Source: Dehalococcoidia bacterium (lineage in GTDB: Bacteria > Chloroflexota > Dehalococcoidia > Lucifugimonadales > VXLM01). From it: a stretch of DNA of 64,000 bases. Shown piece after piece: positions 4,510-19,775 of the stretch (the stretch's first letter is position 1; every line of letters starts with the position of its first letter). The notes beneath the pieces are model-generated. The model made no database searches and was not told the DNA's origin. It worked only from the letters and a program-made list of their open reading frames with translations. The stretch spans positions 712,507 to 776,506 of the forward strand of contig OY759598.1 in NCBI GenBank assembly GCA_963662435.1. The letters are read 5' to 3'. A program made the translations under genes and the position numbers.

Positions 4510-5096
4510 TCTTTCAGGGCGCACGAGCGCTTAGGGTATTCAGAACACTTCGGGCAGGGGTCTGGACATCAGCACTGTTGTTCGTCAACAATGGAAACAG
4601 TTTCAGGCTTTTCCAGCGTTTCCTGCCCTAGAAACCTGGAGGATTCGAGTCCCTGAATCCGGGACCGGTTGCACAGGATCGAGCACTGCGCTCTCCGAAC
4701 AGCCGCCCAAGGGGTCCTGATCGGAAGGATTGAGCATAGCTCTCCCGACGGTCTCCCCGGTGGGACTTTTTGTAAATGGTTGGAGCCGCTTACACGCTTC
4801 AACCCTACGGACACTCAGGTCGGAGTGCTGCCCGCACCCTGACCTGTCCACTCATGTCTGCGGCGCAACCGTCACGCGGTTGGGTCGCAGCTTCGACACG
4901 CGCCGGTCTGCGATAAACGCTTCGCAGGCTGGCCGCTTCACGTCTCGCAGTTTTCCCCACTGACCTTTTGTTCACCCTGGGCCGAGCTGCGTCTTCTTCA
5001 CCCGGTCTCCCGTGTCATCGCGTCGTTGACGGGTCGGGTGCGTGTTTGGAACGGAATCGCGGAGTCAGGCTGATGAGAAAAGGAGGTAACGGCTGT

Positions 5097-5609
5097 ATGG
5101 ACGAAACAGGGACACAGGCATCGGAAGGAGGTACGGACATGGCGGAACGGTACATCGGACCCAGTGCGAGGCGGATCGCAGACCTGCTGCCCCATCGCGT
5201 GAGCTTCGAGCGGGATTGGTTCTGGACCACGACGGCGATCTGCCACGGCGGCAAGTCTGACGCGTTGGCATTTAGGCAGCGACCGGACGGCGAGGGAATT
5301 GACGTTCGGTGCCGCACCGGCTGCTCCCCTGGACTGATCATTACTGAGTTGGAGGTGCTGATCGGTCAGCCCATCTGGGCTGCCTACGAGTCAGTGGGCG
5401 ACGAGGCGGTCAAGGCCCCCGTCACGCGACAGTGGTGGACGAGAAAGCGGTTCGTCGTGGCCGGGGTTGTCGCCCTGGTCGTCGCGGCGCCGCTGTTGCT
5501 CGGCCTGGGGCTGGAGACTACGGTCCTCAACCTCGTCGGGCTGGGCATCGTGGCTTTGCTGCTTCGACGGTTCCTCGTGGGCCGCGCGTTGCGGAAGCTC
5601 CGACGCTGA
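5097..5609 (+). CDS. Small protein with a primase-like Cys/His zinc motif and a C-terminal transmembrane segment
   Basis: AAGGAGG 8 nt upstream of ATG 5097. Motif CHGGKSDALAFRQRPDGEGIDVRCRTGC. Hydrophobic stretch VVAGVVALVVAAPLLLGLGL... Confidence 0.55.
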   Translation: MDETGTQASEGGTDMAERYIGPSARRIADLLPHRVSFERDWFWTTTAICHGGKSDALAFRQRPDGEGIDVRCRTGCSPGLIITELEVLIGQPIWAAYESVGDEAVKAPVTRQWWTRKRFVVAGVVALVVAAPLLLGLGLETTVLNLVGLGIVALLLRRFLVGRALRKLRR

Positions 5610-5650
5610 CGGCACGGGCTCAAGCACTTCGCAACTCACTTCACTCGTAC

Positions 5651-5688
5651 AAGGGTCGTCTCCATCCGGGGGCGGCCCTTCTTCTTTG
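5651..5688 (+). terminator. Rho-independent terminator candidate
   Basis: AAGGGTCG (5651-5658) pairs with CGGCCCTT (5673-5680, one G-U), followed by CTTCTTTG; lies 40 nt after the stop at 5609. Confidence 0.45.
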
Positions 5689-5746
5689 CTCGCACGCGGG
5701 CGCACGGACTCAAGGAAACGAATCACAGGCACTAAGGAGGTGCACG

Positions 5747-6235
5747 ATGACGACGGCGACACTGGTGGCTCACGGACAGACGATGGATACGGCGGTAGTG
5801 CGGCAGAGGCATAGCCTCGAGGAGCTGGTGGACCAGCTCTTCTCAGCGATGGGGTTCGAGGACGAGACGGAAGTGGAGATAGTGGAGAAGGTCGAGACGA
5901 CCCCGACGCGCTCGATCCACGAGGCCCGGCGGCTCAGACAGGCGGGGGACGTCGACGGAGCTCTGGCTGTCCTCGCCGAAGTGGACACGGCGGGAGCGGA
6001 GACGAAGCTGGCGCGGTGGGCCTTCGCCGAGTGGAGGCAGCTGGTGAAGCGGCTGTTCGACGGCCGGGGCCCGATGGTCTACAGCCAGGGCACGGGCCGT
6101 GCTGCAGCGCTGGTGCCCACCGCAGACGACGGGACGCTGGAGGTCGTCGCGGTCCTGGGGATGCGCTGGCGGCCCGGCAAGACCGTGTCAGAGCGCAGCC
6201 TCCGGGGGTTGAGGCCCCTGACCGGGGGTGCGTGA
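5747..6235 (+). CDS. Hypothetical protein (162 aa)
   Basis: AAGGAGG upstream of ATG 5747. Its stop overlaps the primase start (TGATG at 6233-6237). I recognised no motif. Confidence 0.55.
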   Translation: MTTATLVAHGQTMDTAVVRQRHSLEELVDQLFSAMGFEDETEVEIVEKVETTPTRSIHEARRLRQAGDVDGALAVLAEVDTAGAETKLARWAFAEWRQLVKRLFDGRGPMVYSQGTGRAAALVPTADDGTLEVVAVLGMRWRPGKTVSERSLRGLRPLTGGA

Positions 6236-6457
6236 TGGTCGCGGGCAACACGACGGTTGACATCCCCGCTCTGAAGGCGCGGCACCCGCTCGCTGAAGTG
6301 GTGGAGTCTGCCGGAGTGAAACTGCGAGGGAGAGGCAGGGTCCGCCAGGGCTTCTGTCCATTCCACGACGAGGCGGAGGGCAGCTTCACGGTGTACGGAG
6401 ACTCGGAGCGGTTCTACTGCTTCGGTTGTGGTGCCGGAGGCGACGTGCTGGACTTCA
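6235..6457 (+). CDS. DNA primase, exon 1 (CHC2 zinc finger)
   Basis: CPFHDEAEGSFTVYGDSERFYCFGCGAGGDVLDF. Homology ends exactly at the GTGCG that begins at 6458. Confidence 0.8.
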
Positions 6458-6969
6458 GTGCGCCGCGTAACACGGCATAGGATACCCGACTCAATCGGGA
6501 AGAACTCGGAGAAAGTTCTTGGGCCAACCGACCTACCTCAAGGCGAAAGCTAAGGGGGAAAACAGCATGTCGGTAAAGCGGCTACAGTCCCAAAGCGTTG
6601 TAGGACTGGTTCCGCAAGGCCCGCGCGATACGGTGAAAGCTAAACTGCCTCAACCCCAGCCCCCAGACGGTGACTCAGCACACCCGCCGGTAGAACGCTT
6701 GTAACCCGGCGCCACTCATTGCCCTGGTCTGATGAAGTTACCAATGCAACTCCGATGAGTGAACGATGGCCAATGCGGTCATTCAAGGGGACGAACGGGG
6801 CACCTACAGTCGCGCTAGATACGTCCTATGTCGAAGGAACGCGGGATGGCCTACGGGGGGAGACCCCTATGGTCACGGAGTCCTCGTAGTAGTCCGAGCC
6901 GGGGAAAGCCCGGCACATGGCGAAGGAGGACAGGTGTCAACGACGAACAAACACAGAGAGGTATGCAGA

Positions 6970-8742
6970 ATGCAACAAGCCGAAACTGTACTGAACGTCA
7001 TACGCGAACGCGGAGAACGAGGATTGCCGCTGGAGAACATCTATCGGCTGCTTTACAACCGGAACCTTTACCTGCGGGCCTACGGACGTATCTACTCAAA
7101 CCAGGGGGCTACGACCAAGGGAGTCACCGCAGAGACCGTGGACGGTATGTCACTGGCGAAAATCGACCGCATCATCGAAGCCTTGCGCTACGAGCGGTTC
7201 AGGTGGACGCCGGTGCGACGGGTCAACATTCCCAAGCCTAACGGCAAGACCCGCGCCCTGGGCCTACCGACGTGGACGGACAAGCTGCTGCAAGAGGTCA
7301 TTCGGATGATTCTGGAAGCCTACTACGAGCCGCAGTTCTCCGACCGCTCCCACGGCTTTCGGCCCGGTCGGGGGTGCCACACCGCCTTGGGCAACGTGAC
7401 CACCCACTGGACCGGTGTCCGCTGGTTCGTCGAGGGAGACATCAAAGGGTGCTTTGACAACATCGACCACGATGTCCTGTTGTCGGTGCTCGGCGAGAAG
7501 CTCCACGACAACCGATTCCTACGCCTGCTCAAGTACCTACTGAAGGCGGGCTACGTCGAGGATTGGAAGTATGGCCGCACGCTGAGCGGTACACCGCAAG
7601 GCGGCATCGTCAGCCCCATCCTCTCCAACGTTTACCTAGACCGGTTGGACAAGTACGTCGAGAACATGCTCATACCAGCCCACACCGATGGCTCAGACCG
7701 GAGAGACAACCGCGAGTACACACGTTTGCTGAAACAGGCGGCTTACCAGAGGAAACGGGGGAACCACGCCAAGGCACTGCAACTGCGCAAGCAAATGCAA
7801 CAACTGCCGTCACGCGACCCCTACGACCCTAGTTACCGCCGACTGCGGTACGTGCGCTACGCGGACGACTTCGTGCTGGGTTTCATCGGGCCAAAGGCCG
7901 AAGCCGAGCAGATAAAGGAGTCCTTGGAAACATTCCTGCGCGACTCACTCAAGCTGGAGCTATCCAGGGAGAAAACTCTCATAACCCACGCCACCAGCCA
8001 GGCGGCGCGGTTCCTCGGCTACGAACTTGTAAACCAGCAGGCCCACGACCAGTTCGACCAACGGGGTCGGCGCAAGGTCAATGGCCGCATTGGACTACGA
8101 GTTCCCGCCAAAGTCATCGAACAACACTGCCAAGCCTACATGAAAAACGGCAAACCGATTCACCGCAGCATGCTGATCCACGACGAGGACTACTCCATTG
8201 TGGAACAGTATCAGTCGGAGTTCCGGGGAGTCGTCGAGTACTACAAGCTCGCCATGAACGTCTCCCATTTCGGGAGACTGCAATGGATCATGGAGTGGTC
8301 GCTCGCCAAGACCCTTGCGGCCAAACACAAGACCACGTGCCGGAAGGTGTTTCGGAGCTACAAGAGCTCCGTCCCAACCGACCACGGGCCACGTAAATGC
8401 CTCAAGGTCATCAAGGAGCAGGGCAATGGGAAACCCCCAAAGGTGACGCAGTTCGGTGGCATACCCCTGAAGCGGAATCGGCAGGCAGTCCTCGTAGACC
8501 AGCAGCCTCAGCGGTACAGGACTGACCGCAACGAGCTTATCAAACGGCTCCTAGCGGACAAATGCGAGATGTGCGACTCAACGGTGAAGGTAGAAGTTCA
8601 CCACATCCGCGCACTTCGCGACCTGAACGTGAAAGGCCAACGGGAAAAGCCCAAGTGGGTTCAAATCATGGCGGCGCGAAAACGCAAGACCCTCGCGGTC
8701 TGCCGGACGTGTCACATGGACATCCACCACGGGCGAAAGTAA
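6970..8742 (+). CDS. Group II intron reverse transcriptase/maturase with a C-terminal HNH endonuclease
   Basis: Motifs: MQQAETVLNVIRERG..RLLYNRNLYLRAY..TAETVDGMS..IPKPNGKTRALGLPTWTDKLLQE..SHGFRPGRGCHTAL..YVRYADDFVLGF (YADD), then CEMCDS..VHHIRAL..CRTCHMDIHHG (HNH). Confidence 0.9.
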   Translation: MQQAETVLNVIRERGERGLPLENIYRLLYNRNLYLRAYGRIYSNQGATTKGVTAETVDGMSLAKIDRIIEALRYERFRWTPVRRVNIPKPNGKTRALGLPTWTDKLLQEVIRMILEAYYEPQFSDRSHGFRPGRGCHTALGNVTTHWTGVRWFVEGDIKGCFDNIDHDVLLSVLGEKLHDNRFLRLLKYLLKAGYVEDWKYGRTLSGTPQGGIVSPILSNVYLDRLDKYVENMLIPAHTDGSDRRDNREYTRLLKQAAYQRKRGNHAKALQLRKQMQQLPSRDPYDPSYRRLRYVRYADDFVLGFIGPKAEAEQIKESLETFLRDSLKLELSREKTLITHATSQAARFLGYELVNQQAHDQFDQRGRRKVNGRIGLRVPAKVIEQHCQAYMKNGKPIHRSMLIHDEDYSIVEQYQSEFRGVVEYYKLAMNVSHFGRLQWIMEWSLAKTLAAKHKTTCRKVFRSYKSSVPTDHGPRKCLKVIKEQGNGKPPKVTQFGGIPLKRNRQAVLVDQQPQRYRTDRNELIKRLLADKCEMCDSTVKVEVHHIRALRDLNVKGQREKPKWVQIMAARKRKTLAVCRTCHMDIHHGRK

Positions 8743-8856
8743 TCCGCGCAAGCAAAAGTAGGTAGTGTCAGACCCCAAACAATTGAATACGGCCCTTACG
8801 AAGCAATTCCTCAACCTGATAAACTAGCCAGCCATCATGACTGGAGGTTGAGGCCG

Positions 8857-9231
8857 ATGCCCAGAGTGACCGTGCTGACTCTCGTCTCCCTCCTGACCAT
8901 TGCATGTGGTCAGGTCTCTAATCCTTCAGCCCTAGACTTCACGGAACGCACGGCCGAATACGAGGCCCTAGTTGAAGACTTCAACGACCATTGGCGTCTA
9001 GAAAGCAGGATGTGGGCGAGATGGACAACTGCGCACATCGATAGGGATTTCCGCATCCCCGAGACGTGCAAAGAAACTCTGGCGCAGGCGCAAGAGCGAC
9101 ATACGGTATTGAACGACGCCATGCTTTTAGCCAGCCTCGACGGAAACAGGCGTGAAGCCTATGACCTGTTGGGGAAGAAGATCGCCCAGCTAAAGGAACT
9201 TGACGGTGACCTGAAACAAGGCTGCCGCTAG
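8857..9231 (+). CDS. Lipoprotein-like small protein encoded inside intron domain IV, downstream of the RT ORF
   Basis: GGAGG (8840-8844) precedes ATG 8857. Signal/lipobox-like MPRVTVLTLVSLLTIAC-GQ. Local GC is lower than in the flanking intron. Lies between the RT stop (8742) and domain V (9361). Confidence 0.5.
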   Translation: MPRVTVLTLVSLLTIACGQVSNPSALDFTERTAEYEALVEDFNDHWRLESRMWARWTTAHIDRDFRIPETCKETLAQAQERHTVLNDAMLLASLDGNRREAYDLLGKKIAQLKELDGDLKQGCR

Positions 9232-9360
9232 GAACAGTCGACACCGACCTCTTGTGCATCCTCACGCAACCGCATCACTAGAAATGCACTGCGCATCATA
9301 ACACGTGGTGCCCTTAGGGTACCGCGCCTACCTGACGACACTACCCACACCGACACTAGA

Positions 9361-9394
9361 GAGCCGGATGCGGTGAAAGCCGCACGTCCGGTTC
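9361..9394 (+). ncRNA. Group II intron domain V
   Basis: GAGCCGGATGCGGTGAAAGCCGCACGTCCGGTTC matches the canonical 34-nt domain V hairpin (AGC triad, GAAA-type loop, 2-nt bulge). Confidence 0.85.
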
Positions 9395-9457
9395 GGAGGG
9401 GGGCCGACGGAAAAGTGCCCTGAACGCTCAGGGTAACTCGCCGGCGGCCTACCCTAC

Positions 9458-10278
9458 CCCAGCGGGTCGAGGGTCTCACGCTGCCGGAGGCGATCCGGCG
9501 ACTAGAGAGCCAGAGGCCCGTTTCCGTAGCCACTCCGGTCTCGGTGGGTCATCCAGAGGTGGCGCCGCTTCCTCCCAGGGACCCGGCGTTGCTCACAGCT
9601 GCGGCGCGATTCTACGCCGGTCAGCTGCGGCGCAGTCCAACAGCGCAGGCGTACCTTGCCTCGCGGGGCATCGGGCTTGACTCCGCAGCCCGCCTGGGCC
9701 TTGGCTACTCGCCGGGCTTCGGGCTGTGGCAGGCTCTCGAGTCGGCTGGCTTCCCCGGGAAGCGCATCCGGGACTCGGGGTTGTTCATGGAGCGGGGAAC
9801 AGAGCGCTTCGCCGGGATGGTGATCGCTCCCGAGGTCTCCGGTGGGCTTGTCCGCTGGCTCGTGGGCCGGGCCATCGATCCAGACCGGACTCCCCGGTTC
9901 CAGGCGCTGCCCGGTCCCAAGCCGGTGCTTGGGCTTGGTCGTCTCGGCCCCGCGCCACCTCTTGCGGTCGTTGCCGAGGGCGTCTTCGACTGGCTTGCCC
10001 TTGCTTGCTGGGGCATACCCGCGGTCTCTGCCCTTGGTACCCAGGGGGTCGAGCGGATCGCGGGGGTCCTGCGGGGCACGCCCCGCGTCTTCCTTGCCTT
10101 CGACAACGACGCCGCTGGCCTTGAGGCCGCCGGGCGGCTTGCTGGCTTGCTTGGGCGCAGGGCCGCTGCTGTCACACTCCCCGATGGCGTCGGTGACGTG
10201 GCCGAACTTGCTTGCCTTCCCCAGGGCTACTCGCTCTTCCTCCGGCTGCTTGCACGGGCCGCCCGCGCCGCCCGGTAG
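9458..10278 (+). CDS. DNA primase, exon 2 (linker plus TOPRIM domain)
   Basis: In-frame continuation (A)CC CAG.. = T-QRVEGLTLPEAIRRLES, then LLTAAARFYAGQL..YLASRGI. TOPRIM motifs VVAEGVFDWLAL and FLAFDNDAAGLEAA. Confidence 0.8.
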
Positions 10279-10525
10279 GCTCCCGCCACTCCCCCTTCCA
10301 CTTTCCCTTTACTTGGCCTTCCCGGCCCACCCACTCCCTTGCTTAGGGAGTTCGCTCCGCTTCATCCCCATACCACTCTCACCACCCGGAGCTTGCCCCC
10401 GACTCCGATCGGGGGAGGACCCATGCCCATTTCACGACGGGCCTCGCCCGCACACGGCTTCCCTTAGAGGGAACCCGCATCGCTCATTCGCTACAGGAAC
10501 ACCGACACAAGGAAGGAGAATCGAG

Positions 10526-11392
10526 ATGTTCAACAGAAACGGACACAACAACGGAAACGGCGCCCACAACGGCGCTGCGGTCGCCTCGCGCAACGGCAAC
10601 GGGCACAGGCCCGACGCCGCCCCCGCACCGAGTGCGGGGCAGGCTATCCCTGCGGAGCACGAGCTCGTCTGGGACGGGCTGTCGCCCGCCGTCACCCAGG
10701 CGCTCGGGCAGCCCATCGACCCCTCGCTGGTCTCCCACCGCAAGGGGCGCGGCGGCAGGACCTTCGACTACCTCGAAGGTCACGCCGTCATCGACCAGGC
10801 CAACCGCATCTTCGGATTCGGCGGATGGGGGTACGAGCTGGTAGGCGACGTGACGCTGCGCCAGGTCGAGACGGTCGATCCCCAGACCGGCGAGGTGGAG
10901 GTCTCGCTCGGCTACAGCGCCCCGGTCCGGGTCACGGTGGCGGGCGCGCTACCCCGCACGGACACCGGCGTCCACCCCGTGGCCGAGGACACCGTCGACG
11001 GTCACGACACAGCCATCAAGGGGGCAGTCACAGACGGCATGAAACGGGCCTTCAGGAGCTTCGGGGTCCAGTTCGGCAACGGCTTTTACGGCGACCAGAC
11101 GCAGGCGGTGCAGCCGGAGCGCGTGCCGGTGCAGTCCAACGGCAGGTCCGGTCAGGCCCAGCCCGGGAACGGGCCGCAGGCGCAGTCCCGGGACGAGGCG
11201 CAGGCGGACAAGCTACGCAAGCGCCTCATCGAGATCGCCGTCGAGCAGGGTCTCAACGAAGAGCAGGTGGGGACTGCCGTGGTCAACCGGACGGGCAAGA
11301 GCATCGACGACCTGACGGTCGCCGAGCTCGGGCCGCTGGTCGAGGCCGCCGCCGCCAAGCTGCGGCAGATGCAGCAGGCCGAGGCTGCATAG
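10526..11392 (+). CDS. Rad52/Rad22-family single-strand annealing protein
   Basis: GGAAGGAG upstream of ATG 10526. Motifs HRKGRGGRTFDYLEGHAVIDQANRIFGFGGWGYEL and TAIKGAVTDGMKRAFRSFGVQFGN. Confidence 0.7.
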   Translation: MFNRNGHNNGNGAHNGAAVASRNGNGHRPDAAPAPSAGQAIPAEHELVWDGLSPAVTQALGQPIDPSLVSHRKGRGGRTFDYLEGHAVIDQANRIFGFGGWGYELVGDVTLRQVETVDPQTGEVEVSLGYSAPVRVTVAGALPRTDTGVHPVAEDTVDGHDTAIKGAVTDGMKRAFRSFGVQFGNGFYGDQTQAVQPERVPVQSNGRSGQAQPGNGPQAQSRDEAQADKLRKRLIEIAVEQGLNEEQVGTAVVNRTGKSIDDLTVAELGPLVEAAAAKLRQMQQAEAA

Positions 11393-11486
11393 CCCTGCGG
11401 TCAACCGGAAGTTCGGCATCGAGCGGAGTGGTCTCCCGATGGGGTTGCCCCGCTCGCTCATTACAGGACAATCAAGGAGGTCTGAC

Positions 11487-11987
11487 ATGACGACCAACGT
11501 TACCTACACACCCTGGGGTTGGACCATGGACATTACGGAATTGGCCGAGGGCGTCTGGCGGGTCTCGACGCCCTCGCACGGCGGGCTGAAGCTCAGCTTG
11601 GAGCGGTGGGACGAGCTTCCCATCGAGCTGCGGGAGGCCATGTACACGCAGACCTTCGCCGAGGAGGACTGCGAGAAGCCCATCGTCAGGACGCTGCTGG
11701 GGCTGGGCGACGAACACGAGCGGGAGATGGCGCTGAAAGTGGCGGGCTACTTCGACCGCTACGCCCCGGCGCTCCCCCACCTCCGCGAATGCTCCCCGGC
11801 CATTCACTACCACGCCATCTTCTACTGGGGAGACTACGGGTCGGACCCCTTCGAGCGGTTCGACACCCGCGTCGAGGCCGAGTCCTTCCTGGGTGACCCG
11901 GAGATGGAGCGGGCCCACGGGCGGATGGAGGCCATTGAGTGCACCGGGACTCGCCCGGTCTGCGCGGGAAGGGGGGCCAGGCCATGA
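11487..11987 (+). CDS. Hypothetical protein (166 aa)
   Basis: AAGGAGG upstream of ATG 11487. Stop overlaps the next start (ATGA at 11984-11987). Confidence 0.55.
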   Translation: MTTNVTYTPWGWTMDITELAEGVWRVSTPSHGGLKLSLERWDELPIELREAMYTQTFAEEDCEKPIVRTLLGLGDEHEREMALKVAGYFDRYAPALPHLRECSPAIHYHAIFYWGDYGSDPFERFDTRVEAESFLGDPEMERAHGRMEAIECTGTRPVCAGRGARP

Positions 11988-12400
11988 CCGCGACGACGCG
12001 GACCAGGCCCCGCAGCCTGCCCAGCACGACGACCCGGCTGCAGACGGAGATGGGAAACCTTTTCGTCACGGTCTCCGTGGACGAGGACGGCGAGCCCTTC
12101 GAGGTCTTCGGGGCGCTCGGCAAGGGCGGCTCATTCCAGCACGGGGTGACCGAACTTGCGTGCCGTCTCATCTCGCTGCACATGCGCAGGGGCACACCCG
12201 TTGAGGAAATCGTCGACCAAATCCAGGGCATTCAAGAGATGGCGCCGTTCTGGAACCACCTGGGCGACGGCAGAAGCGTGCCCATCCACGGCCTGGGCGA
12301 CGGCATCGCCCACATTCTCAAGGCCCTCCTGAAGGCGAAGCAGGAGAGGGAAGCACAGGCCGAGACCGAGCAGGAAACTGAGGTGAAGGCGGCAGCGTGA
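11984..12400 (+). CDS. TSCPD-like domain protein (similar to the class II ribonucleotide reductase C-terminal domain)
   Basis: GNLFVTVSVDEDGEPFEVFGALGKGGSFQHGVTELACRLISLHMRRGTPVEEIVDQIQGI. The eponymous TSCPD Cys motif is replaced by HGLGDGIAHIL. Confidence 0.55.
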   Translation: MTATTRTRPRSLPSTTTRLQTEMGNLFVTVSVDEDGEPFEVFGALGKGGSFQHGVTELACRLISLHMRRGTPVEEIVDQIQGIQEMAPFWNHLGDGRSVPIHGLGDGIAHILKALLKAKQEREAQAETEQETEVKAAA

Positions 12401-12445
12401 GCGGCCCCTTCTCTCACCTACAGGACAACAAGGAGGTGAACGACG

Positions 12446-13543
12446 ATGGTAACCACGGTTTATGACAGGGCGGGGGTCTTCTCCCGCCCTGCGGCGCAGA
12501 TCAACGAGGACGGCGAACTGGTGGTGCGGGCCTCTTCCGCCTTGGGCTGCCGCCGCGCGCTCTGGTACGCCGCCACCGGCTACGAGCCGACCAACCCCCC
12601 CGGCGACGACTCGCTGACGGCTATGGAGGCTGGCAACGCCCTGGAGCCGGTGGTGGTGCGGGCGATGGAGCGGGCTGGCTGGAAGGTCGACGCCCCCGAC
12701 CCGCAGGACCCGCACCAGGTGGCGGTGGAGGTGGGCCCTAACCTGCTGGTGACCGGGCACCCCGACGGTACGATCCGGATGCCGGTGGAGGAGGGCGACG
12801 CGGCCCCGCCGCAGATGTTCCTCTTCGAGGGGGAACAGGACGGACCCGTCTTCGGCGACGAGATGGTTGTCGAGATCAAGACGCGTGGCCCGGAGGCGTT
12901 CCGCCGCTGGCGGACGCTGGGGGCCGAGCGCAGCCACCCGGCGTCGGTGGCGCAGGCCGCCTTCTACACCCTCGGAGAGTTCGGGGATTTGCGGGACGTG
13001 GTGATAGCCACGATGGACACGGGCAGCCGCATCTGGGACTGGGAGCGGATACCCGCCGACCGGCTGGAGCGGGCCCTGCAGGACGCCTGCGAATGGCTCG
13101 GCGAACTAGGGGCCCACCACGTAGAAAACGGGGCAGACCCCGACGCGCTGCCGGAGCGTGACTTCACGGCCAACTCATGGCAGTGCCGGTCGTGCCCGTT
13201 CCTGGCAGTCTGCCTGCCTGGCGCGGAGGAGGAGTGTGAAGAGACTGAGACCGAAGGAAAAGAGGTGACGGACGAGGAGGCGCAGGACGCGGTGGCGGCC
13301 TACGCCGAGGCCAAGGACGCGGTCAAGGAGCCCGAAAAGGCAAAGAGGACCGCACTCGACACCCTGAAGGCGTGGATGCGCCGCCAGGGCGATTCGAAGG
13401 CGACCATCAACGGTAAGACGGTCAGCCTCGTGCGGACGACACGATACTCGGTGAACCACCGGAAGCTCAACGAGGCGCTCGACCCTGAGACCAGGGCGGA
13501 GATCGTCACCGAGAGCGAGTCGGAGTACGTCCGGGTCAGCTAG
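12446..13543 (+). CDS. PD-(D/E)XK exonuclease, Cas4/RecB-like, with a four-Cys cluster
   Basis: AAGGAGG upstream. Motifs GHPDG....VVEIKTRG, with an N-terminal Cys (LGCRRALWY) plus CRSCPFLAVC. Sits in a recombination module with the annealase and SSB. Confidence 0.65.
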   Translation: MVTTVYDRAGVFSRPAAQINEDGELVVRASSALGCRRALWYAATGYEPTNPPGDDSLTAMEAGNALEPVVVRAMERAGWKVDAPDPQDPHQVAVEVGPNLLVTGHPDGTIRMPVEEGDAAPPQMFLFEGEQDGPVFGDEMVVEIKTRGPEAFRRWRTLGAERSHPASVAQAAFYTLGEFGDLRDVVIATMDTGSRIWDWERIPADRLERALQDACEWLGELGAHHVENGADPDALPERDFTANSWQCRSCPFLAVCLPGAEEECEETETEGKEVTDEEAQDAVAAYAEAKDAVKEPEKAKRTALDTLKAWMRRQGDSKATINGKTVSLVRTTRYSVNHRKLNEALDPETRAEIVTESESEYVRVS

Positions 13544-13662
13544 ACGCTCTCTCACGGGAGCGGAGAACGGGGCCGTCATCCCCTCTAAAGGCGACGGCCC
13601 CGCCTTCAATCAAGAAGGGCGTGCAAGGAACGCGCCGCATCCACCAAGGAGGATACAGAACT

Positions 13663-14031
13663 ATGGCACGCACGATCAACAAGGTAGAACTGTTGGGCAG
13701 GGTCGGGACCGACCCAGAGATGACCTACACGCAGGGCGGCACCGCCGTCACCAAGCTGCGGCTGGCGACCGACCGCTACCGCAGGGACGCGGAGCCCGAG
13801 ACCGACTGGCATAACGTCGTGGTATGGAATGGGACCGCCGAGGCGGTGAACCAGTACGTCGCCAAGGGCCAGCGCATCTATGTGGCCGGACGCCTCGTCC
13901 AGAACAACTGGGAGGGAGACGACGGCCAGCGCCGTCACCGCACTGAGATCCACGCCTCCGAGGTCGTGTTCCTCGACGGCGGGAATGGCAGCGGGAATGT
14001 CGGGCAGGCGGAGGACGCCTCCCCCTTCTAA
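13663..14031 (+). CDS. ssb: Single-stranded DNA-binding protein
   Basis: MARTINKVELLGRVGTDPEMTYTQGGTAVTKLRLAT..WHNVVVWNGTAEAVNQYVAKGQRIYVAGRL..., with an acidic tail ending DASPF. Confidence 0.85.
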   Translation: MARTINKVELLGRVGTDPEMTYTQGGTAVTKLRLATDRYRRDAEPETDWHNVVVWNGTAEAVNQYVAKGQRIYVAGRLVQNNWEGDDGQRRHRTEIHASEVVFLDGGNGSGNVGQAEDASPF

Positions 14032-14152
14032 CCCGCTGGACGGACAACGGAAACCGACGCTCGCCACAACTGGGCGCAAAGACCACGGGGCCGCTCCCAC
14101 TTTACATGAGGCGGCCCTGCTCCTGTTCTAACCGATAACGAAGGAGGCCGAC

Positions 14153-14713
14153 ATGACCCGGAAGAAGAAAGGCGCCAACAACCAGAAAGAAGTCCTTGAG
14201 GGCAACCCTACCCCTGCGCCGGGGCTGGAGGGGCAGGCAATTCTCGATGCCCTGCGCAGCAACCTGAACCTGCTTGGAGAGCTGGCGGTGCGCTACGAGG
14301 TGGCAACCAGGCCAGAGGGCCCGGAGGATCCACCTTCCATCGGCTCCCCCCGCGATGTCCACAGCCTGCTGGGGCCGGAGATGTCCCAGCTGGCCCAGGA
14401 GCAGCTGCGAGTCCTGCTGCTGAACACCAAGAACGAGGTGGTCGGCCAGCGGGTCGTCTACCAGGGAAACATAAGCTCGTCGATGGTTCGCGCGGCGGAG
14501 GTGCTGAGGCCCGCCGTCATAGAGGCGGTCCCCGCGGTCATCATCAGTCACAACCACCCGTCCGGCGACCCCGACCCCAGCCCCAACGACGTGACGATCA
14601 CCCGCAAGCTCAAGCAGGCGGCGGACTTGCTGGACATTGACCTGCTCGACCACATCGTCATCGGCGGGAAACGGCACGTCAGCCTCAAGGACCGGGGGCT
14701 GATGGCCGGATAG
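14153..14713 (+). CDS. radC: RadC-like JAB-domain protein
   Basis: LRVLLLNTKNEVVGQRVVYQGNISSSMVRAAEVLRPAV..AVIISHNHPSGDPDPSPNDVTITRKL..DHIVIG. Confidence 0.8.
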   Translation: MTRKKKGANNQKEVLEGNPTPAPGLEGQAILDALRSNLNLLGELAVRYEVATRPEGPEDPPSIGSPRDVHSLLGPEMSQLAQEQLRVLLLNTKNEVVGQRVVYQGNISSSMVRAAEVLRPAVIEAVPAVIISHNHPSGDPDPSPNDVTITRKLKQAADLLDIDLLDHIVIGGKRHVSLKDRGLMAG

Positions 14714-14766
14714 AGCCAGTCCCACCCCGCAGGTCGAACGAAAACCAAGAGAAGAGAGAAGAAGAA

Positions 14767-15084
14767 ATGACAGACAAAGACATTCGGAACGCGCCCATCA
14801 AGTGGAAGGTCATTGGGGCCGGGTTCGTAATGCAAGGCGGGTTCGTCGCCCTTGTGGACAGGGACCCGGACCCGTTCCCCTGCACCGTCTTCGACGGCAC
14901 GGAGGAGGAGAGGGAGACCCACGAGAGGATGTGCAGGGAGACCTGGGCCACCGTGTGGGAGCTGGAGGGAGACACGCTCGAAGAGGCCAGGCAGTCCCTG
15001 GCGGAGCGCCGCTTTAGCGGGTCCGCATACCACGTGAACGACTGCGAGCTTCTGGACGACCGGCCGCAGGCGGACACGCCCTAG
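14767..15084 (+). CDS. Hypothetical protein (105 aa)
   Basis: ATG start, codon usage like its neighbours, no motif recognised. Confidence 0.45.
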   Translation: MTDKDIRNAPIKWKVIGAGFVMQGGFVALVDRDPDPFPCTVFDGTEEERETHERMCRETWATVWELEGDTLEEARQSLAERRFSGSAYHVNDCELLDDRPQADTP

Positions 15085-15180
15085 CGCAAGAGCATCACAT
15101 CGACCCCTTCCGGGGCTTCACGACGGGGACACCCTCCCCCGCTTGCATCATCCATACCAAGGAATGAAAGGAGACTGCCC

Positions 15181-15831
15181 ATGTTGCAGACTCGCACCAT
15201 TGACCTCGAGGACCCCGTATCGAGTACGGGGCAGGCTCTGTTCACCATCTCGGCGGGCGGCTTCTCGGCCACGGTGGACGCCTTCGCCCGCGACGACAGG
15301 ACGGAAGGCCTCTGGTTCGTCTCGATGGTCGGCTCCCAGACCGCGCTCAAGGCGATCTGGGCCTCGCTGCTGAAGCAGCCGCCCGACACCGCGCACCTGA
15401 TCAGGGGCGCCGACGGGATGGCCCTCAGCGGCGGCTACCAGAGGTGCCAGATCCCGTACGAGACCCTGGGGACGTGGACGACGAAGATATCCCGCCTGCC
15501 CTCGTCCGGGGGATGGCATGCGCTGGTGTACACGAAGCAGGCGGAGTACGGATTCGAGAAGGACTCGTTCCTCCTGCTGGCGCAGTCGGCGGACGAGGCC
15601 CCGGCGCTGCACCACCGCTTCCTCGACAAGCGCAGCCCGCTGCCGCTGCACGGCTCCTGGGCCGACTGGCTCTGGGAACGGGGCATCGAGGAGGAGGAGA
15701 TAGTACCGCTGCAGTCGGTGGGCATATCCGCCTACCGGTGCTCCCCCAAGGCCAAGAAGCTCCGCGAAGACCTGTCCGCCGCGGTGGCGTCGGGCAGGCT
15801 CACGCTGCCCACGGAGGCGTCCGATGGATAG
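15181..15831 (+). CDS. Hypothetical protein (216 aa)
   Basis: GAAAGGAG upstream of ATG 15181. Overlaps the next ORF by 8 nt. Contains the 30-nt hairpin repeat at 15211-15240. Confidence 0.5.
   Translation: MLQTRTIDLEDPVSSTGQALFTISAGGFSATVDAFARDDRTEGLWFVSMVGSQTALKAIWASLLKQPPDTAHLIRGADGMALSGGYQRCQIPYETLGTWTTKISRLPSSGGWHALVYTKQAEYGFEKDSFLLLAQSADEAPALHHRFLDKRSPLPLHGSWADWLWERGIEEEEIVPLQSVGISAYRCSPKAKKLREDLSAAVASGRLTLPTEASDG
15211..15240 (+). repeat. 30-nt hairpin repeat, copy 1
   Basis: GACCCCGTATCGAGTACGGGGCAGGCTCTG with stem CCCCGTA/TACGGGG; 29/30 identical to 15916-15945. Confidence 0.8.
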
Positions 15832-16255
15832 GACGCTGAAGCGGGCAAAGCGCCACAACAAGCGGCGGGGGCAGCGCAACCACGCCGCCTGGCAGCGTTT
15901 TTCCTCCGATGGAGAGACCCCGTATCCAGTACGGGGCAGGCTCTGCCGCTACTGCCCCCACGACATCACTGAGCATCTCATGAGCTCGGGACAGCCGCAC
16001 TTCTTCCGCCCGGCGACGGAGCGGGAGAGGCGCGCCCCCCACCTCATGCTCTACCGGCACACGCTGCCGGAGGGCGGCTCGGTGCTGGTACGGCGGATGA
16101 CCGTCGCCAACCGCGCCGAGCTGATAACCGCCTACTGCACGGCCTGCGCCGAGAGCATGGGCACGAGCCAGGTGCTGTGCTTCCAGCGCAACTTGGCCAT
16201 CGGAGAGGTGGTCGGGCTCAAGACCGACGACACCGACATAGCAATCGCCGCCTGA
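15824..16255 (+). CDS. Hypothetical protein (143 aa)
   Basis: ATG start overlapping the upstream gene. Contains copy 2 of the 30-nt repeat, read in a different frame. Confidence 0.45.
   Translation: MDRTLKRAKRHNKRRGQRNHAAWQRFSSDGETPYPVRGRLCRYCPHDITEHLMSSGQPHFFRPATERERRAPHLMLYRHTLPEGGSVLVRRMTVANRAELITAYCTACAESMGTSQVLCFQRNLAIGEVVGLKTDDTDIAIAA
15916..15945 (+). repeat. 30-nt hairpin repeat, copy 2
   Basis: GACCCCGTATCCAGTACGGGGCAGGCTCTG, 705 nt downstream of copy 1. Confidence 0.8.
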
Positions 16256-16278
16256 AAGCGGCGGAAAGGAGACGGAAC

Positions 16279-16548
16279 ATGCCAACCGAACAGGCGCTGT
16301 TCTTCACGTGCCCGCACTGCGAGGAGCGGTTCGCCCAGGTGGAGGAGCCAGACAGGGACATCCACACCGGGGAGATCTACCACTGCGGGTCGTGCGGCAT
16401 CCAGGTGATCCTCCATGCGGTGACGGTGGAGGACTACGTGCCACCGCCACGGGCGAGGAGGGACTGCCACTTCTGCCGGCCCGAGCCATGCCGGTTTGGG
16501 CCGAACGTCGATGTTACCAACGACACACGGAAAGGAGAGACGACATGA
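16279..16548 (+). CDS. Small zinc-ribbon protein
   Basis: CPHC..x..CGSC pairs (FFTCPHCEERF...IYHCGSCGIQV). Stop overlaps the next start (ATGA at 16545-16548). Confidence 0.5.
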   Translation: MPTEQALFFTCPHCEERFAQVEEPDRDIHTGEIYHCGSCGIQVILHAVTVEDYVPPPRARRDCHFCRPEPCRFGPNVDVTNDTRKGETT

Positions 16549-17582
16549 GACTGGCCGCACAGGCGAAAGGCGGATACTACCCGACCCCGGAGCGGGTGGT
16601 AGACCTGATCGCCGACCTGATACACACCCCCACCGGCAACTACTACCGGGAGAGGGAGACACTGCGCATCCTCGACCCCTGCTGCGGGGCCGGGGACGCG
16701 CTGCAGAAGCTGGCCGAGCGGCTCGACCGGCCCGAACCGGTCTCCATCGAGACCTACGGCGTCGAGTTGCACCGGGACCGGGCGGAAGAAGCGGCGCGCC
16801 GCCTGACCCGCGCGCTGGCCTCCGACCTGTTCGCCACGTCAATAGCGAACGGGGCCTTCGGCCTGCTGCTGCTCAATCCGCCGTATGACTGGGACTCGGA
16901 GGACAAGAGGGTCGAGCACGCCTTCCTGACTCACACCACCCGCTACCTGGCCGAGAGCGGCCTGCTGGTATTCATCGTGCCGAGGCAGCGCCTCTCGTAC
17001 TCGGCCAGGTACCTGTCCACCCACTACGGGCGGATGCGGTGCTGGGCCTTCCCGAGCCCCGAGCGCGAGGTCTTCGACCAGGTCGTGCTCATGGGCTACC
17101 GGAAGGCCGACCCCGTGCCCGACGCGCCTGCGGAGAGCATGGTGATGGAGTGGGCTCTCGGTGAGCCGGAGCCGCTGCGCTCCCACCGCTACACCGAGTA
17201 CACCCCTGTCACCACGCCCAGCGGGGACATCCTGTTCACGACCCGCACCGTGGACCCGGTGGCGGCGGCCGCCGAGGCGAGGCGGTCGGGGCTGTGGGCC
17301 AACACGGAGATAACCGACACCCTCTGGCCCGCGAAGGACGGCCGCACCCGCCCGCTCATGCCGCTGAGGCGGGGCCACACGGCGATGCTGGTGGCGGCGG
17401 GCTTTCTCGACAACCTCGTCCTCGACGGGGACGGGCGGCGCATCCTAGTCAAGGGCAGGACCAGCAAGGAGATGGAACTGGTCGAGGACTCCCCGGAGAA
17501 GGAAGTACACCGCGAGAGGCTCGTGACGACCGTGGTGGCCCTCGATCTGGACGACGGCGAGATCACCGACATCGCGGCGTAG
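16545..17582 (+). CDS. SAM-dependent DNA methyltransferase (N6-adenine/N4-cytosine type, NPPY)
   Basis: ILDPCCGAGDAL (motif I) and LLLLNPPYD (motif IV). Lies next to the helicase, as in many conjugative and phage elements. Confidence 0.7.
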   Translation: MRLAAQAKGGYYPTPERVVDLIADLIHTPTGNYYRERETLRILDPCCGAGDALQKLAERLDRPEPVSIETYGVELHRDRAEEAARRLTRALASDLFATSIANGAFGLLLLNPPYDWDSEDKRVEHAFLTHTTRYLAESGLLVFIVPRQRLSYSARYLSTHYGRMRCWAFPSPEREVFDQVVLMGYRKADPVPDAPAESMVMEWALGEPEPLRSHRYTEYTPVTTPSGDILFTTRTVDPVAAAAEARRSGLWANTEITDTLWPAKDGRTRPLMPLRRGHTAMLVAAGFLDNLVLDGDGRRILVKGRTSKEMELVEDSPEKEVHRERLVTTVVALDLDDGEITDIAA

Positions 17583-17643
17583 ACGGCTCAACCGAAGAGC
17601 CGCGGACATGACACCCACATACAAGGAAAGGAGAACAGAGACG

Positions 17644-17841
17644 ATGCAGACGGTCATGGTCATGGAGACCTGCTGCCGGTGCGGGCAGCCGATAGCCCCC
17701 GGCGAGCCGGCCATGCAGACCGCCTCGGTGGACATCGACGCCCACGGAAGGGCGGTCTCCTCGGCGGTGAAGGCGTACCACCTGAGCGGAGACTGCTACG
17801 AGGAGTACAGGCGGCGGGAACGACTCCCCGACGCCGCATAG
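17644..17841 (+). CDS. Small Cys-rich protein (65 aa)
   Basis: GGAAAGGAG upstream. Motifs METCCRCGQPI and SGDCYEEY. Confidence 0.45.
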   Translation: MQTVMVMETCCRCGQPIAPGEPAMQTASVDIDAHGRAVSSAVKAYHLSGDCYEEYRRRERLPDAA

Positions 17842-18075
17842 ACGCCCCCCGCGGGGCCGCATTCCGAGGACCGCCACGTGCGGCCTCGCCGATTCAATCA
17901 AGCGCCTGAGGACGCTTCCAAGACCCACATTCACAAGCGTCCTCTTCTCTCCCTCGGGGTGAGATGGGCGCAGTGCGTCTCCCGTCAAACCCGCCCTGCG
18001 GCGGCGACCAGGGAGAACATGCACCGGGGTCTCGGCGTCGTCCTCCGGCCACCAGGGAACAGGAGGACGACAGAA

Positions 18076-19775
18076 ATGAACCTCGGAGACTTCATCGACA
18101 AGTTCAAAGATGCGATAGCCCGGAGGGTGGTCGAGTCCTACCCGCCCCTCTACCGCCCCTCGGAGAACGGCGGCACCCTGCCCCGGCTGCTCCGCACGCC
18201 CCTGGGGGCGCAGGCCGACGCCATAAAGGGCGCGGCCCTCTCGCTCCGGGCCAACCGGGGCACGACCGTCGTCGGCGAGATGGGAACGGGAAAAACCTTC
18301 ATCGGTGCGGCGGCGGCGCACATGGCGGGCTTCGAGAGGATCCTGGTCCTCTGCCCGCCGCACCTGACGAGGAAATGGAAGCGGGAGGTGGAGGAGACCG
18401 TCCCGTTCGCACGGGCCGCCATCGTCACCTCGATCACCGGGCTGGAGAAGCTCCGGCATTCCACCGGCTCGGGGCCGTTGTTCGTCGTGATGAGCAGGGA
18501 GCGGGCGAAGCTCTCCTACCGCTGGAAGGCCGCCGTCACCTACCGATGGGCGACGTCGCGGGGCAGGCTCATCAGGGAGGAGGAGACGGGGGAGCCGTTT
18601 CGAGTCCCCTGCTGCCCGGCCTGCACGGCCCAGGTCGTGGACAAGGACGGGGTGCCGCTGACGGACGCCGACCTGAACCGCAGAAAGCGCACCTGCGCCG
18701 CCTGTGGCTCGCCCCTCTGGCAGGCCGACAACTCCGGCCCCAAGCGCTACCCGCTCAGCGACTACGTGAAGCACAGGATGAAGGGCTTCTTCGACCTGCT
18801 GATCGGCGACGAGATCCACGAGTACAAGGGTCGTGGCTCGGCCCAGGGCATCGCCGCCGGGGTCCTCGCCGACGCCTGCGGCAGATCCCTCAGCCTGAGC
18901 GGGACCCTCATGGGAGGGTACGCTTCCACGCTCTTCCATCTGCTCTACCGGTTCTCACCGGAGATCAGGACGGAATTCGGACGTTCCGAGGAGTCCCGCT
19001 GGATCAAGCGGTACGGCTTTGAAGAGCACACCATCGGCAGGCCCGACGACGGCGCTGTGGAGGACGGCAGGCTCAGCCGCCGCCGCAAATTCCGCAAGGT
19101 GGTCAGGGAGAGGCCGGGGCTCGTCCCCAGCGCCCTCTTCCACATCATCCATAACACCGTGTTCCTCAGACTCTCGGACGTGGCCTCGGGCCTGCCCGAC
19201 TACGAGGAGCAGATCCTGCTGTCCTCGATGGACTCCGAGGAGGACGCGACGGGCTACTCCCAGCGCACGGCCTACAACACGGTCTTCGAGGAGCTCCGCA
19301 AGGAGCTGGCGAACGCCCTGAAGTCCGGCTCCAAGCGGCTGTTGGCCACCTACCTGCAGACGCTCCTGGCCTACCCGGAGGGGTGCACGAAGGGCGAGAC
19401 GGTCTTCGACCCCAGGTCGGGCGACGTCATCGTCCAGGTGCCGCCGCTCTCCGAGGAGCGGCTCTACCCCAAGGAGAAGGCGCTCGTCGACCTGGTGGCC
19501 GCCGAGCGGCTGGCCGGGCGCAGGGTGCTGGTCTACGCGACACACACGGGAACGCGGGACATCACCGGGCGGATGGACGACATCCTCACCCGGCACGGTT
19601 TCAGGGTGGCGGTGATGAAGGCCGATGCCGTGGCCCCGGACCGCAGGGAGAGGTGGGTGGCCGATAGGGTCGGCGAGGGCATCGACGTGATGGTCTGCCA
19701 CCCCAGGCTGGTGCAGACCGGCCTCGACCTGATCGACTTTCCGACCCTGGTTTGGTTCGAGACGGAGAACTTTGT
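18076..19775 (+). pseudogene. SNF2/DEAD-like helicase, 3'-truncated by insertion of the serine-recombinase element
   Basis: AGGAGG upstream of ATG 18076. Motifs GEMGTGKTF (motif I) and LIGDEIHEY (motif II), with C-terminal lobe ..VLVYATHTG..VMVCHPRLVQTGLDLIDFPTLVWFETE. Motif VI is missing, and after about 19770 the frame reads Ala/Pro/Arg-rich antisense of the recombinase gene. Confidence 0.7.

Follow-up and report, generated by a model that had tools for sequence, protein, structure and literature searches.

A group II intron in the primase gene of an ICE-like element of Dehalococcoidia, and the cargo genes carried by its family

Introduction

The insertion of group II introns into genes of conjugative elements is a known theme. 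The closest analogue of the intron described here is Ll.LtrB, which lies in the ltrB relaxase gene of Lactococcus lactis (pRS01 and the sex factor) and whose splicing controls relaxase expression and conjugation (PMC1874635, PMC7293003, PMC6003770). In this study, we describe an intron that interrupts a CHC2/Toprim primase gene in a Dehalococcoidia bacterium (Chloroflexota; assembly GCA_963662435.1). The analysed stretch of 64,000 nucleotides (nt), referred to as the window, corresponds to positions 712507-776506 of contig OY759598.1, and the host genome is one contig of 4.145 Mb. Positions are those of the window unless they are given as genome positions, and a slash within a sequence or a protein motif marks a junction, an insertion site or a cleavage site.

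Like Ll.LtrB, the window intron codes for a protein of its own (the intron-encoded protein, IEP) that contains reverse transcriptase (RT), maturase (X), DNA-binding (D) and endonuclease (En) domains. It has the same set of IIA recognition elements, which are the exon-binding sites EBS2 and EBS1 and the delta base, and it is likewise inserted in the sense strand of an essential DNA-processing gene of a conjugative element (PMC1874635, PMC7293003, PMC6003770). The two differ in the interrupted gene, which is the relaxase in one case and the CHC2/Toprim primase in the other, and in the host, which belongs to the Firmicutes for Ll.LtrB and to the Dehalococcoidia for the window intron. Unlike Ll.LtrB, the window intron carries a second gene in domain IV, and whereas Ll.LtrB is known from essentially one site, the family of the window intron occupies at least 46 sites in conserved element genes. 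Among bacteria, further mitochondrial-like (IIA) introns, such as those on plasmids of cyanobacteria and Streptomyces, are only distant relatives, with IEPs 58-61% identical over their full length to that of the window intron.

Genes have also been placed in domain IV by engineering, in the targetrons derived from Ll.LtrB or TeI introns (PMC2518211, PMC3706431). Targetrons and the window intron have in common that foreign sequence sits in the domain IV loop without destroying the ribozyme. Unlike that of targetrons, the cargo of the window intron's family is natural, lies downstream of an intact IEP, is found in about half of the family and consists mostly of lipoproteins. In a non-exhaustive search of the literature, no description was found of introns in Dehalococcoidia elements or of natural cargo genes in domain IV. 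With the primase case, the known theme is extended to another gene and another phylum, and a clean pair of occupied and empty alleles becomes available. What is unusual is not the intron itself but the natural cargo slot that recurs in its family.

Results and Discussion

The interrupted primase gene

We consider it highly probable that a complete IIA intron has retrohomed into the sense strand of the CHC2/Toprim primase gene of an element resembling an integrative and conjugative element (ICE), and that its splicing restores and gates the primase. As far as the DNA itself can show, it is confirmed that window 6458-9457 is a complete IIA (mitochondrial-like, LtrA-type) group II intron in sense orientation in the primase gene (Table 1).

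The initial annotation had recognised the CHC2 zinc-finger part and the Toprim part of a single primase on either side of the intron, and had predicted that splicing would bring them back into one frame. This is upheld, as joining position 6457 to 9458 gives an open frame of 1044 nt encoding 347 amino acids (aa), which reads ..GDVLDF-T-QRVEGLTLPEAIRRL.. across the junction. The ATG start of the primase overlaps the stop codon of the upstream open reading frame (ORF), in the sequence TGATG. In the spliced protein, the Pfam family Zn_ribbon_DnaG (PF01807) matches residues 10-96 (E 2.7e-20), spanning the junction at residue 74/75, and Toprim_2 (PF13155) matches residues 245-318 (E 3.9e-10). The zinc ligands (C41, H44, C62 and C65) and the acidic Toprim residues (E248, D290 and D292) are invariant in the homologue alignment A1, and both exons are free of stops, frameshifts and lost catalytic residues.

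Searching with the spliced protein returned 3007 proteins with E <= 0.001, the best 120 of which are 343-353 aa long and 74-91% identical, and 12 of the best homologues could be aligned with no gap at the junction. The closest intron-less homologue is on a metagenome scaffold (L007), with 91% identity at the protein and 93% at the DNA level and the same gene order as in the window (primase, Rad52, DUF7007, TSCPD, exonuclease). L007 is uninterrupted at GACGTGCTGGACTTCA/CCCAGCGGG (longer reading GGCGACGTGCTGGACTTCA/CCCAGCGGGTCGAGG), which is exactly the predicted ligation product. The initial annotation had proposed that intron-less homologues should be searched for to confirm the homing site, and L007 shows the predicted junction to the nucleotide. 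The site is therefore polymorphic, being occupied in the window and empty in L007.

Another explanation for the split gene would be that the exons act as separate proteins without splicing, a zinc-finger stub and a stand-alone Toprim protein of 244 codons starting at the GTG at 9544. An ORF with this GTG start does exist (9544-10278). However, the homologues are single chains of about 347 aa, the Zn_ribbon_DnaG match crosses the junction, and the region 9458-9543, which such a protein would lack, is conserved as coding sequence in the intron-less alleles. No Shine-Dalgarno motif was noticed before 9544, although none was looked for. We therefore regard two separate proteins as very improbable and a single primase, interrupted by an intron, as the better description of the locus.

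Pairwise dN/dS between the split primase and L007 is 0.31 overall (0.16 for exon 1 and 0.33 for exon 2), and pairs of paralogues give 0.24-0.28; being pairwise, these values are also compatible with decay on the branch of the window's copy alone. The C-terminal DnaB-helicase-binding domain of chromosomal DnaG was not found in the Pfam scan, and the primase stops at residue 347, directly after Toprim. As the genome has a separate chromosomal dnaG-like gene (genome 2194413-2195315), 34% identical to the split primase, a chain that ends just past Toprim indicates a short primase of the mobile-element type.

A different lineage of the same intron family is found in the same primase gene in L017, L031 and L077, 24 codons upstream (..DEAEGS/FTV). 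In the window's primase, this upstream site is intact and empty (6373-6385, GCGGAGGGCAGCT/TCACGGTG).

Structure of the intron and of its encoded protein

The limits given in the initial annotation, 6458-9457, proved to be correct. The intron is exactly 3000 nt long, and its ends, GTGCG at 6458-6462 and ..CCTAC with the final TAC ending at 9457, match the consensus of 5' GUGYG and 3' AY. The Rfam model RF00029 matches at 9359-9457 over its full length (E 4e-11; 67.4 bits, the gathering score being 40). This bears out the canonical domain V that had been noted before, including its AGC triad and GAAA loop. Four further full copies of the intron, with 82-88% nt identity, are present in the same genome (copies A to D), together with one decayed copy. 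For domain I, the consensus fold that RNAalifold gives for the five copies has 111 pairs with 96.9% of cells paired. Both sides have changed in 18 of these pairs, and sliding the partners by 1-3 columns leaves 0-5 such pairs. A basal stem of domain IV appears to adjoin domain V, with changes relative to copies A and B that look compensatory when judged by eye. The ribozyme hallmarks of the window intron are all intact and agree with those of the sister copies.

The ORF that the initial annotation had read as RT/maturase/HNH is recognised as such by Pfam (RVT_1, E 2.1e-32; Intron_maturas2, E 4.7e-16; AI2M-like_HNH, E 2.2e-13). It is intact, without stops or frameshifts, and is preceded by GAGAGG 8 nt upstream of its start. 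The IEP aligns with LtrA (PDB 5g2x chain C) from end to end (residues 22-589 against 24-598, E 9e-125), and its dN/dS against relatives is 0.27-0.34. In a tree of IEPs, the window intron forms a lone branch of length 0.12, and its sister relationship to the clade of copy A is weak (90/90), which suggests that its immediate relatives are unsampled. Recent retargeting from the lineage at helicase motif I was considered, since EBS1 is TGAAGG there and TGAAGT in the window intron, with the same delta. The tree gives no support to it, as the window intron falls outside the well-supported clade of helicase-site introns.

Exon recognition

A back-translated search of 185,579 species genomes returned 247 relatives of the IEP, and 76 loci were fetched (L010-L085). 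These are all from Dehalococcoidia or SAR202 metagenome-assembled genomes, and the Dehalococcoidia family forms a group of its own, with IEPs 72-89% identical to that of the window intron. Both intron ends could be mapped in 70 of the 76 fetched loci, and all 70 introns start with GTGCG and end in ..AC. The family is large and is specialised on conserved ICE genes of Dehalococcoidia, with at least 46 target sites occupied in uncultured Dehalococcoidia/SAR202 bacteria. Sister lineages recur at their sites in many genomes, the most often occupied being helicase motif I (GTGKTF/I), with 23 fetched loci.

The pairings of EBS1 and EBS2 with the intron-binding sites IBS1 and IBS2 of the 5' exon, as claimed in the initial annotation, are exact at 6/6 positions each, and covariation across the family agrees with them. 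TGAAGT and CAGCAC each occur only once within the intron, in hypervariable loops that are the most variable stretches of domain I. As about 0.7 complements of one hexamer are expected by chance per 3 kb, an independent test of the pairings was required; their significance comes from the position in the loops and from covariation, not from the hexamer match alone. The alignment columns of EBS1, EBS2 and delta in the window intron were therefore compared with the exons at 46 distinct 13-nt 5'-exon sites, using 2000 shuffles of the exons. With their own exons, the EBS1 columns paired at 5.15 of 6 positions, compared with 2.81 for shuffled exons, and the EBS2 columns at 4.52 of 6, compared with 2.58. 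For delta, the base 5' of EBS1, a pair with the base that opens the 3' exon was present at 87% of sites (40% when shuffled). The observed values were reached in 0 of the 2000 shuffles for EBS1, EBS2 and delta. This shows that EBS2 and EBS1 in domain I recognised the target by pairing, the former with exon positions -13 to -8 and the latter with positions -6 to -1. Delta pairing, in place of an EBS3-IBS3 pair, is the rule of the IIA class and agrees with the LtrA-like intron protein. Loops that follow their exons at 46 or more sites also provide a natural data set on the retargeting of IIA introns.

It could be argued that the EBS/IBS matches and the intron-like ends have arisen by chance and that the segment is another kind of insertion (a retron, for instance, or an RT gene on its own), given that one hexamer match is expected about 0.7 times in 3 kb. 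This is refuted by the RF00029 match of 67.4 bits, the LtrA-like IEP, the covariation of loops and exons over 46 sites and the exact empty-site allele, and we give it no weight beside the group II intron.

Table 1. Features of the interrupted primase gene and its intron in the window
Feature	Position	Strand	Description
Primase exon 1	6235-6457	+	codons 1-74 and first base of codon 75; CHC2 zinc ribbon
IBS2	6445-6450	+	GTGCTG, exon positions -13 to -8; exact complement of EBS2
IBS1	6452-6457	+	ACTTCA, exon positions -6 to -1; exact complement of EBS1
Group II intron	6458-9457	+	3000 nt, IIA/LtrA-like class, GTGCG ... CCTAC
Domain I	6458-6835	+	consensus fold of five genome copies (RNAalifold)
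EBS2	6676-6681	+	CAGCAC; hypervariable terminal loop of conserved domain I hairpin
Delta and EBS1	6732-6738	+	A6732, then TGAAGT 6733-6738; hypervariable terminal loop of conserved hairpin
IEP	6970-8742	+	590 aa; RT (RYADD), maturase (X domain), DNA-binding region, HNH endonuclease
Extra segment	8763-9340	+	about 580 nt in domain IV, between IEP stop and 3' strand of domain IV stem
Cargo ORF	8857-9231	+	124 aa; predicted small lipoprotein; signal peptide, LLTIAC/G; GGAGG 9 nt upstream of start
Domain V	9361-9394	+	34 nt; AGC triad 9362-9364; GAAA loop 9375-9378; RF00029 alignment and sequence check
Domain VI	9397-9455	+	bulged branch-point A at 9451; RF00029 alignment, terminating ..CCUACCCUAC
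Primase exon 2	9458-10278	+	remainder of codon 75 to codon 347 and stop; primase core and Toprim; C9458 is delta'

The host element

The neighbours of the split primase are genes for a Rad52-family annealing protein, DUF7007, TSCPD and a putative exonuclease. A phage or prophage host was first suggested by the Rad52 and exonuclease neighbours. It was rejected in favour of a conjugative element, based on genes of a type IV secretion system (T4SS) beside the same gene string in a related locus (L008) and on seven VirB4 copies in the window's genome. When the intron was compared by blastn with 50,697 phage records, the only match was one of 95 nt in two Streptococcus gallolyticus phages, where an unannotated stretch is 83% identical to intron positions 384-478 (6841-6935) in the region of domains II and III.

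In L008, VirB4/TraC, TrbL and a T4SS pilin are found 4-10 kb upstream of the string of primase, Rad52, DUF7007, TSCPD, exonuclease, SSB and RadC genes, and a methyltransferase gene is also found downstream. The window's genome contains five copies of the split primase's family, and T4SS genes are linked to the primase module in four sister copies of this genome as well as in L008. The T4SS linkage in L008 and the VirB4 copies of the genome thus indicate that the host belongs to a conjugative, ICE-like element family. The sister introns interrupt further conserved genes of sister elements. The TSCPD gene holds copy A and the exonuclease gene holds copy D. Further along the sister-element backbone, downstream of the helicase region, are copies B and C, about 1 kb apart.

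TraC of RP4 and Sog of ColIb-P9 are DnaG-type primases of conjugative plasmids, and the split primase resembles them in type, a likeness of general kind and not of compared sequences. It is a short CHC2 and Toprim primase beside SSB, recombination or anti-restriction genes, which suggests priming of the transferred strand. The primase is therefore probably an enzyme of transfer or establishment (leading-region priming) rather than a phage-type replication primase.

Copies B (genome 3184548-3186958) and C (genome 3187979-3190386) are two introns in one gene. The EBS2 loop of copy C pairs far better with the exon of copy B (ATGCGTGTC/GGCACGCAT, 9 bp) than with its own exon.

Splicing and primase output

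According to the model that we favour, the intron would have entered the primase gene of a conjugative element by retrohoming, and the primase operon would be transcribed through it. The 590-aa IEP would be translated from domain IV and, acting as maturase, bind the intron RNA. Attack of the branch-point A9451 on the 5' splice site at 6457/6458 would follow, and the freed exon 1 would attack 9457/9458, so that ligation at ..GACTTCA/CCCAG.. (junction GACTTCA/CCCAGCGG) would yield the 347-aa primase. The excised lariat together with the IEP would form the retrohoming particle. Splicing in vivo is thus what the intact ribozyme and exons lead us to infer.

Without splicing, the frame ends at the intron TAG at 6478-6480, giving an 81-aa zinc-finger stub. 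As unspliced RNA gives only this stub, the output of primase would be gated by splicing efficiency, which would set the level of primase in the way that Ll.LtrB splicing does for the relaxase. By analogy, the intron ribonucleoprotein might also depress expression of the host gene (PMC6003770).

Several observations weigh against a functional, splicing-dependent primase in this copy. The first group concerns the element. The backbone is syntenic with the sister elements from window 4818 to 19766, where synteny stops inside the helicase gene, to resume about 65 kb later, beyond the window (genome 732272 to 797560). The helicase gene is therefore split by a large insertion of about 65 kb, which takes up most of the window (19.8-64 kb). 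The T4SS block is found about 100 kb to the right, inverted relative to the sister copies, and IS-like repeats stand in place of the usual left flank. The second group concerns the primase, as the other four of the five copies in the genome are uninterrupted, 73-75% identical and located in sister elements. The third concerns the target. Searches of JGI metagenome contigs, of the 185,579 species genomes and of 60 relatives (15 belonging to the same genus) found no further occupied copy of the window's primase site. Also, IBS2 and IBS1 are both identical in the paralogous primase gene at genome 3171150 (+), which has a pairing T at +1 as well but no intron; a perfect target that is empty in the same genome counts against current mobility. 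Lastly, in the ribozyme itself, delta A6732 stands opposite C9458 (delta') as an unpaired A.C, a position pair to which the initial annotation had not referred, minimum free energy folding of a mini-intron gave ambiguous long-range pairings for domains II-IV, and the Rfam D1-D4 models matched the 5' part only weakly (E 0.32), a score from which no class is assigned by RNA models.

These observations could mean that the intron, though genuine, is no longer spliced out to any useful extent, so that the primase is inactivated in a decaying copy of the element which relies, if at all, on the primases of its sister elements. The interrupted helicase gene, the rearranged T4SS block, the IS-like repeats, the four intact paralogues, the delta-delta' mismatch, the empty perfect target and the occurrence of the occupied site in this genome alone, among those searched, favour this view. 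The coding sequences and the ribozyme speak against it. Neither the exons nor the IEP have acquired stops, frameshifts or lost catalytic residues, dN/dS is about 0.3 both for the primase (against the intron-less allele) and for the IEP, albeit as pairwise values, and the ribozyme hallmarks are all as intact as in the sister copies. We therefore regard an inactivated primase as unlikely, and an intron that splices to restore the primase remains our preferred interpretation. The initial annotation had concluded that replication of the host element would depend on splicing. Such dependence is a plausible expectation for this type of element, relaxed in this copy, as it is weakened by the four paralogues that could act in trans, the rearrangement of the element and the interruption of its helicase gene.

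The insertion at window 19.8-64 kb includes defence-like genes (DUF1016 nuclease, DUF499/DUF1156 methylase and AAA_15). Helicase motif I in the window (18283-18301) is empty and has GGAAAA at IBS2 instead of the cognate GGCAAG.

The cargo segment of the window intron

In an alignment of the five copies of the genome, the extra segment of the window intron is missing from the four sister copies. The 3' strand of the basal stem of domain IV apparently follows the insert, which places it in the domain IV loop. It is bracketed by a 12-nt inverted repeat (8758-8769 and 9337-9348, 11/12 complementary), which could close off the insert.

The predicted lipoprotein encoded by the segment has two conserved cysteines and a predicted three-helix body. 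Its AlphaFold2 model (pLDDT 78.6) consists of three long helices. The protein belongs to no Pfam family and has no fold match in the PDB (best Foldseek E 1.5). An exhaustive HMMER scan of 1.8 billion representative proteins found 17 relatives, most of which are lipobox proteins of about 120 aa with two invariant cysteines, and two of which are giants that repeat the domain 8-10 times. The core of the segment (8784-9278) is 85.5% identical to L009, the closest relative, against which the cargo ORF has a dN/dS of 0.37.

L009 is a Logan contig of 1136 nt with a mosaic structure. It combines a fragment of the element helicase gene (1-68) with a 120-nt internal fragment of the IEP (227-350) and, at 351-847, the cargo module; its tail is unrelated. 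The contig is without domain V and looks like a decayed intron. The cargo ORF's Shine-Dalgarno region is overlapped by a perfect 9-bp hairpin (8809-8817 and 8845-8853, CCTCAACCT and AGGTTGAGG) that is kept in L009 and may be a translational control element.

Another decayed intron is L004 (genome about 200.4-203.5 kb), in which only the C-terminal HNH part of the IEP is left. An ORF of 166 aa that has a hydrophobic tail as well as an HNH motif of its own comes next, and then intact domains V-VI. L004 and the window intron share the sequence just before domain V (GACACTAC..GACACT).

A recurring cargo slot in the family

In 34 of the 70 mapped relatives the spacing is compact, with about 105 nt from the IEP stop to the intron end. 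The other 36 have 350-1000 extra nt directly after the IEP stop, mostly with intact IEPs, and almost all of these inserts hold an ORF of 70-235 aa on the same strand. A lipobox was found in 20 of the 32 cargo relatives examined, and several others have transmembrane segments. The cargo ORFs belong to several families without relation to one another, and the one in L012 encodes a 235-aa protein that is not secreted. As such inserts are found in about half of the related introns, cargo at this position of domain IV appears to be tolerated. Single genomes can have identical cargo-bearing introns at two places (L025/L026 and L065/L066 are examples), so the cargo is not obviously a block to spread.

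Our tentative suggestion, put forward with less than even confidence, is that the family is a natural gene vector in which the domain IV slot after the IEP stop holds exchangeable same-strand cassettes, mostly for small lipoproteins or membrane proteins. Exchange, rather than co-inheritance, is suggested by unrelated cargo in close introns and by the same cargo in distant introns. The cargo family of the window intron is also found in L056, which has a distant IEP, and the nearest introns to L056 (L054 and L059) carry a different lipoprotein. L021 and L032 point the same way, as their cargo proteins have the same signal peptide with a different mature part.

If the family is such a vector, retrohoming into conserved genes of conjugative elements would spread genes for surface proteins, and expression of the cargo would be tied to transcription of the interrupted gene. 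It is conceivable that the cargo acts at the surface of the element's host, for example in entry exclusion or partner recognition. If the cargo-bearing introns are mobile, nature already uses group II introns as gene-delivery vehicles. The cargo habit bears on the design of targetrons, as to how much cargo is tolerated and where, and on how nested mobile elements spread surface functions.

A second variable slot is located at intron position ~379 (window ~6836), between domain I and a conserved GAACGCGGGATGG block. It is extended by 250-1370 nt in copies A and D and in 16 related loci, mostly without convincing ORFs, and in L015 it holds an IS630-like transposase. Head-to-tail tandem introns were seen in L010, L014 and L081, where the 3' exon begins directly with the GTGCGCCG of the next intron, and in L010 three introns follow each other in a row.

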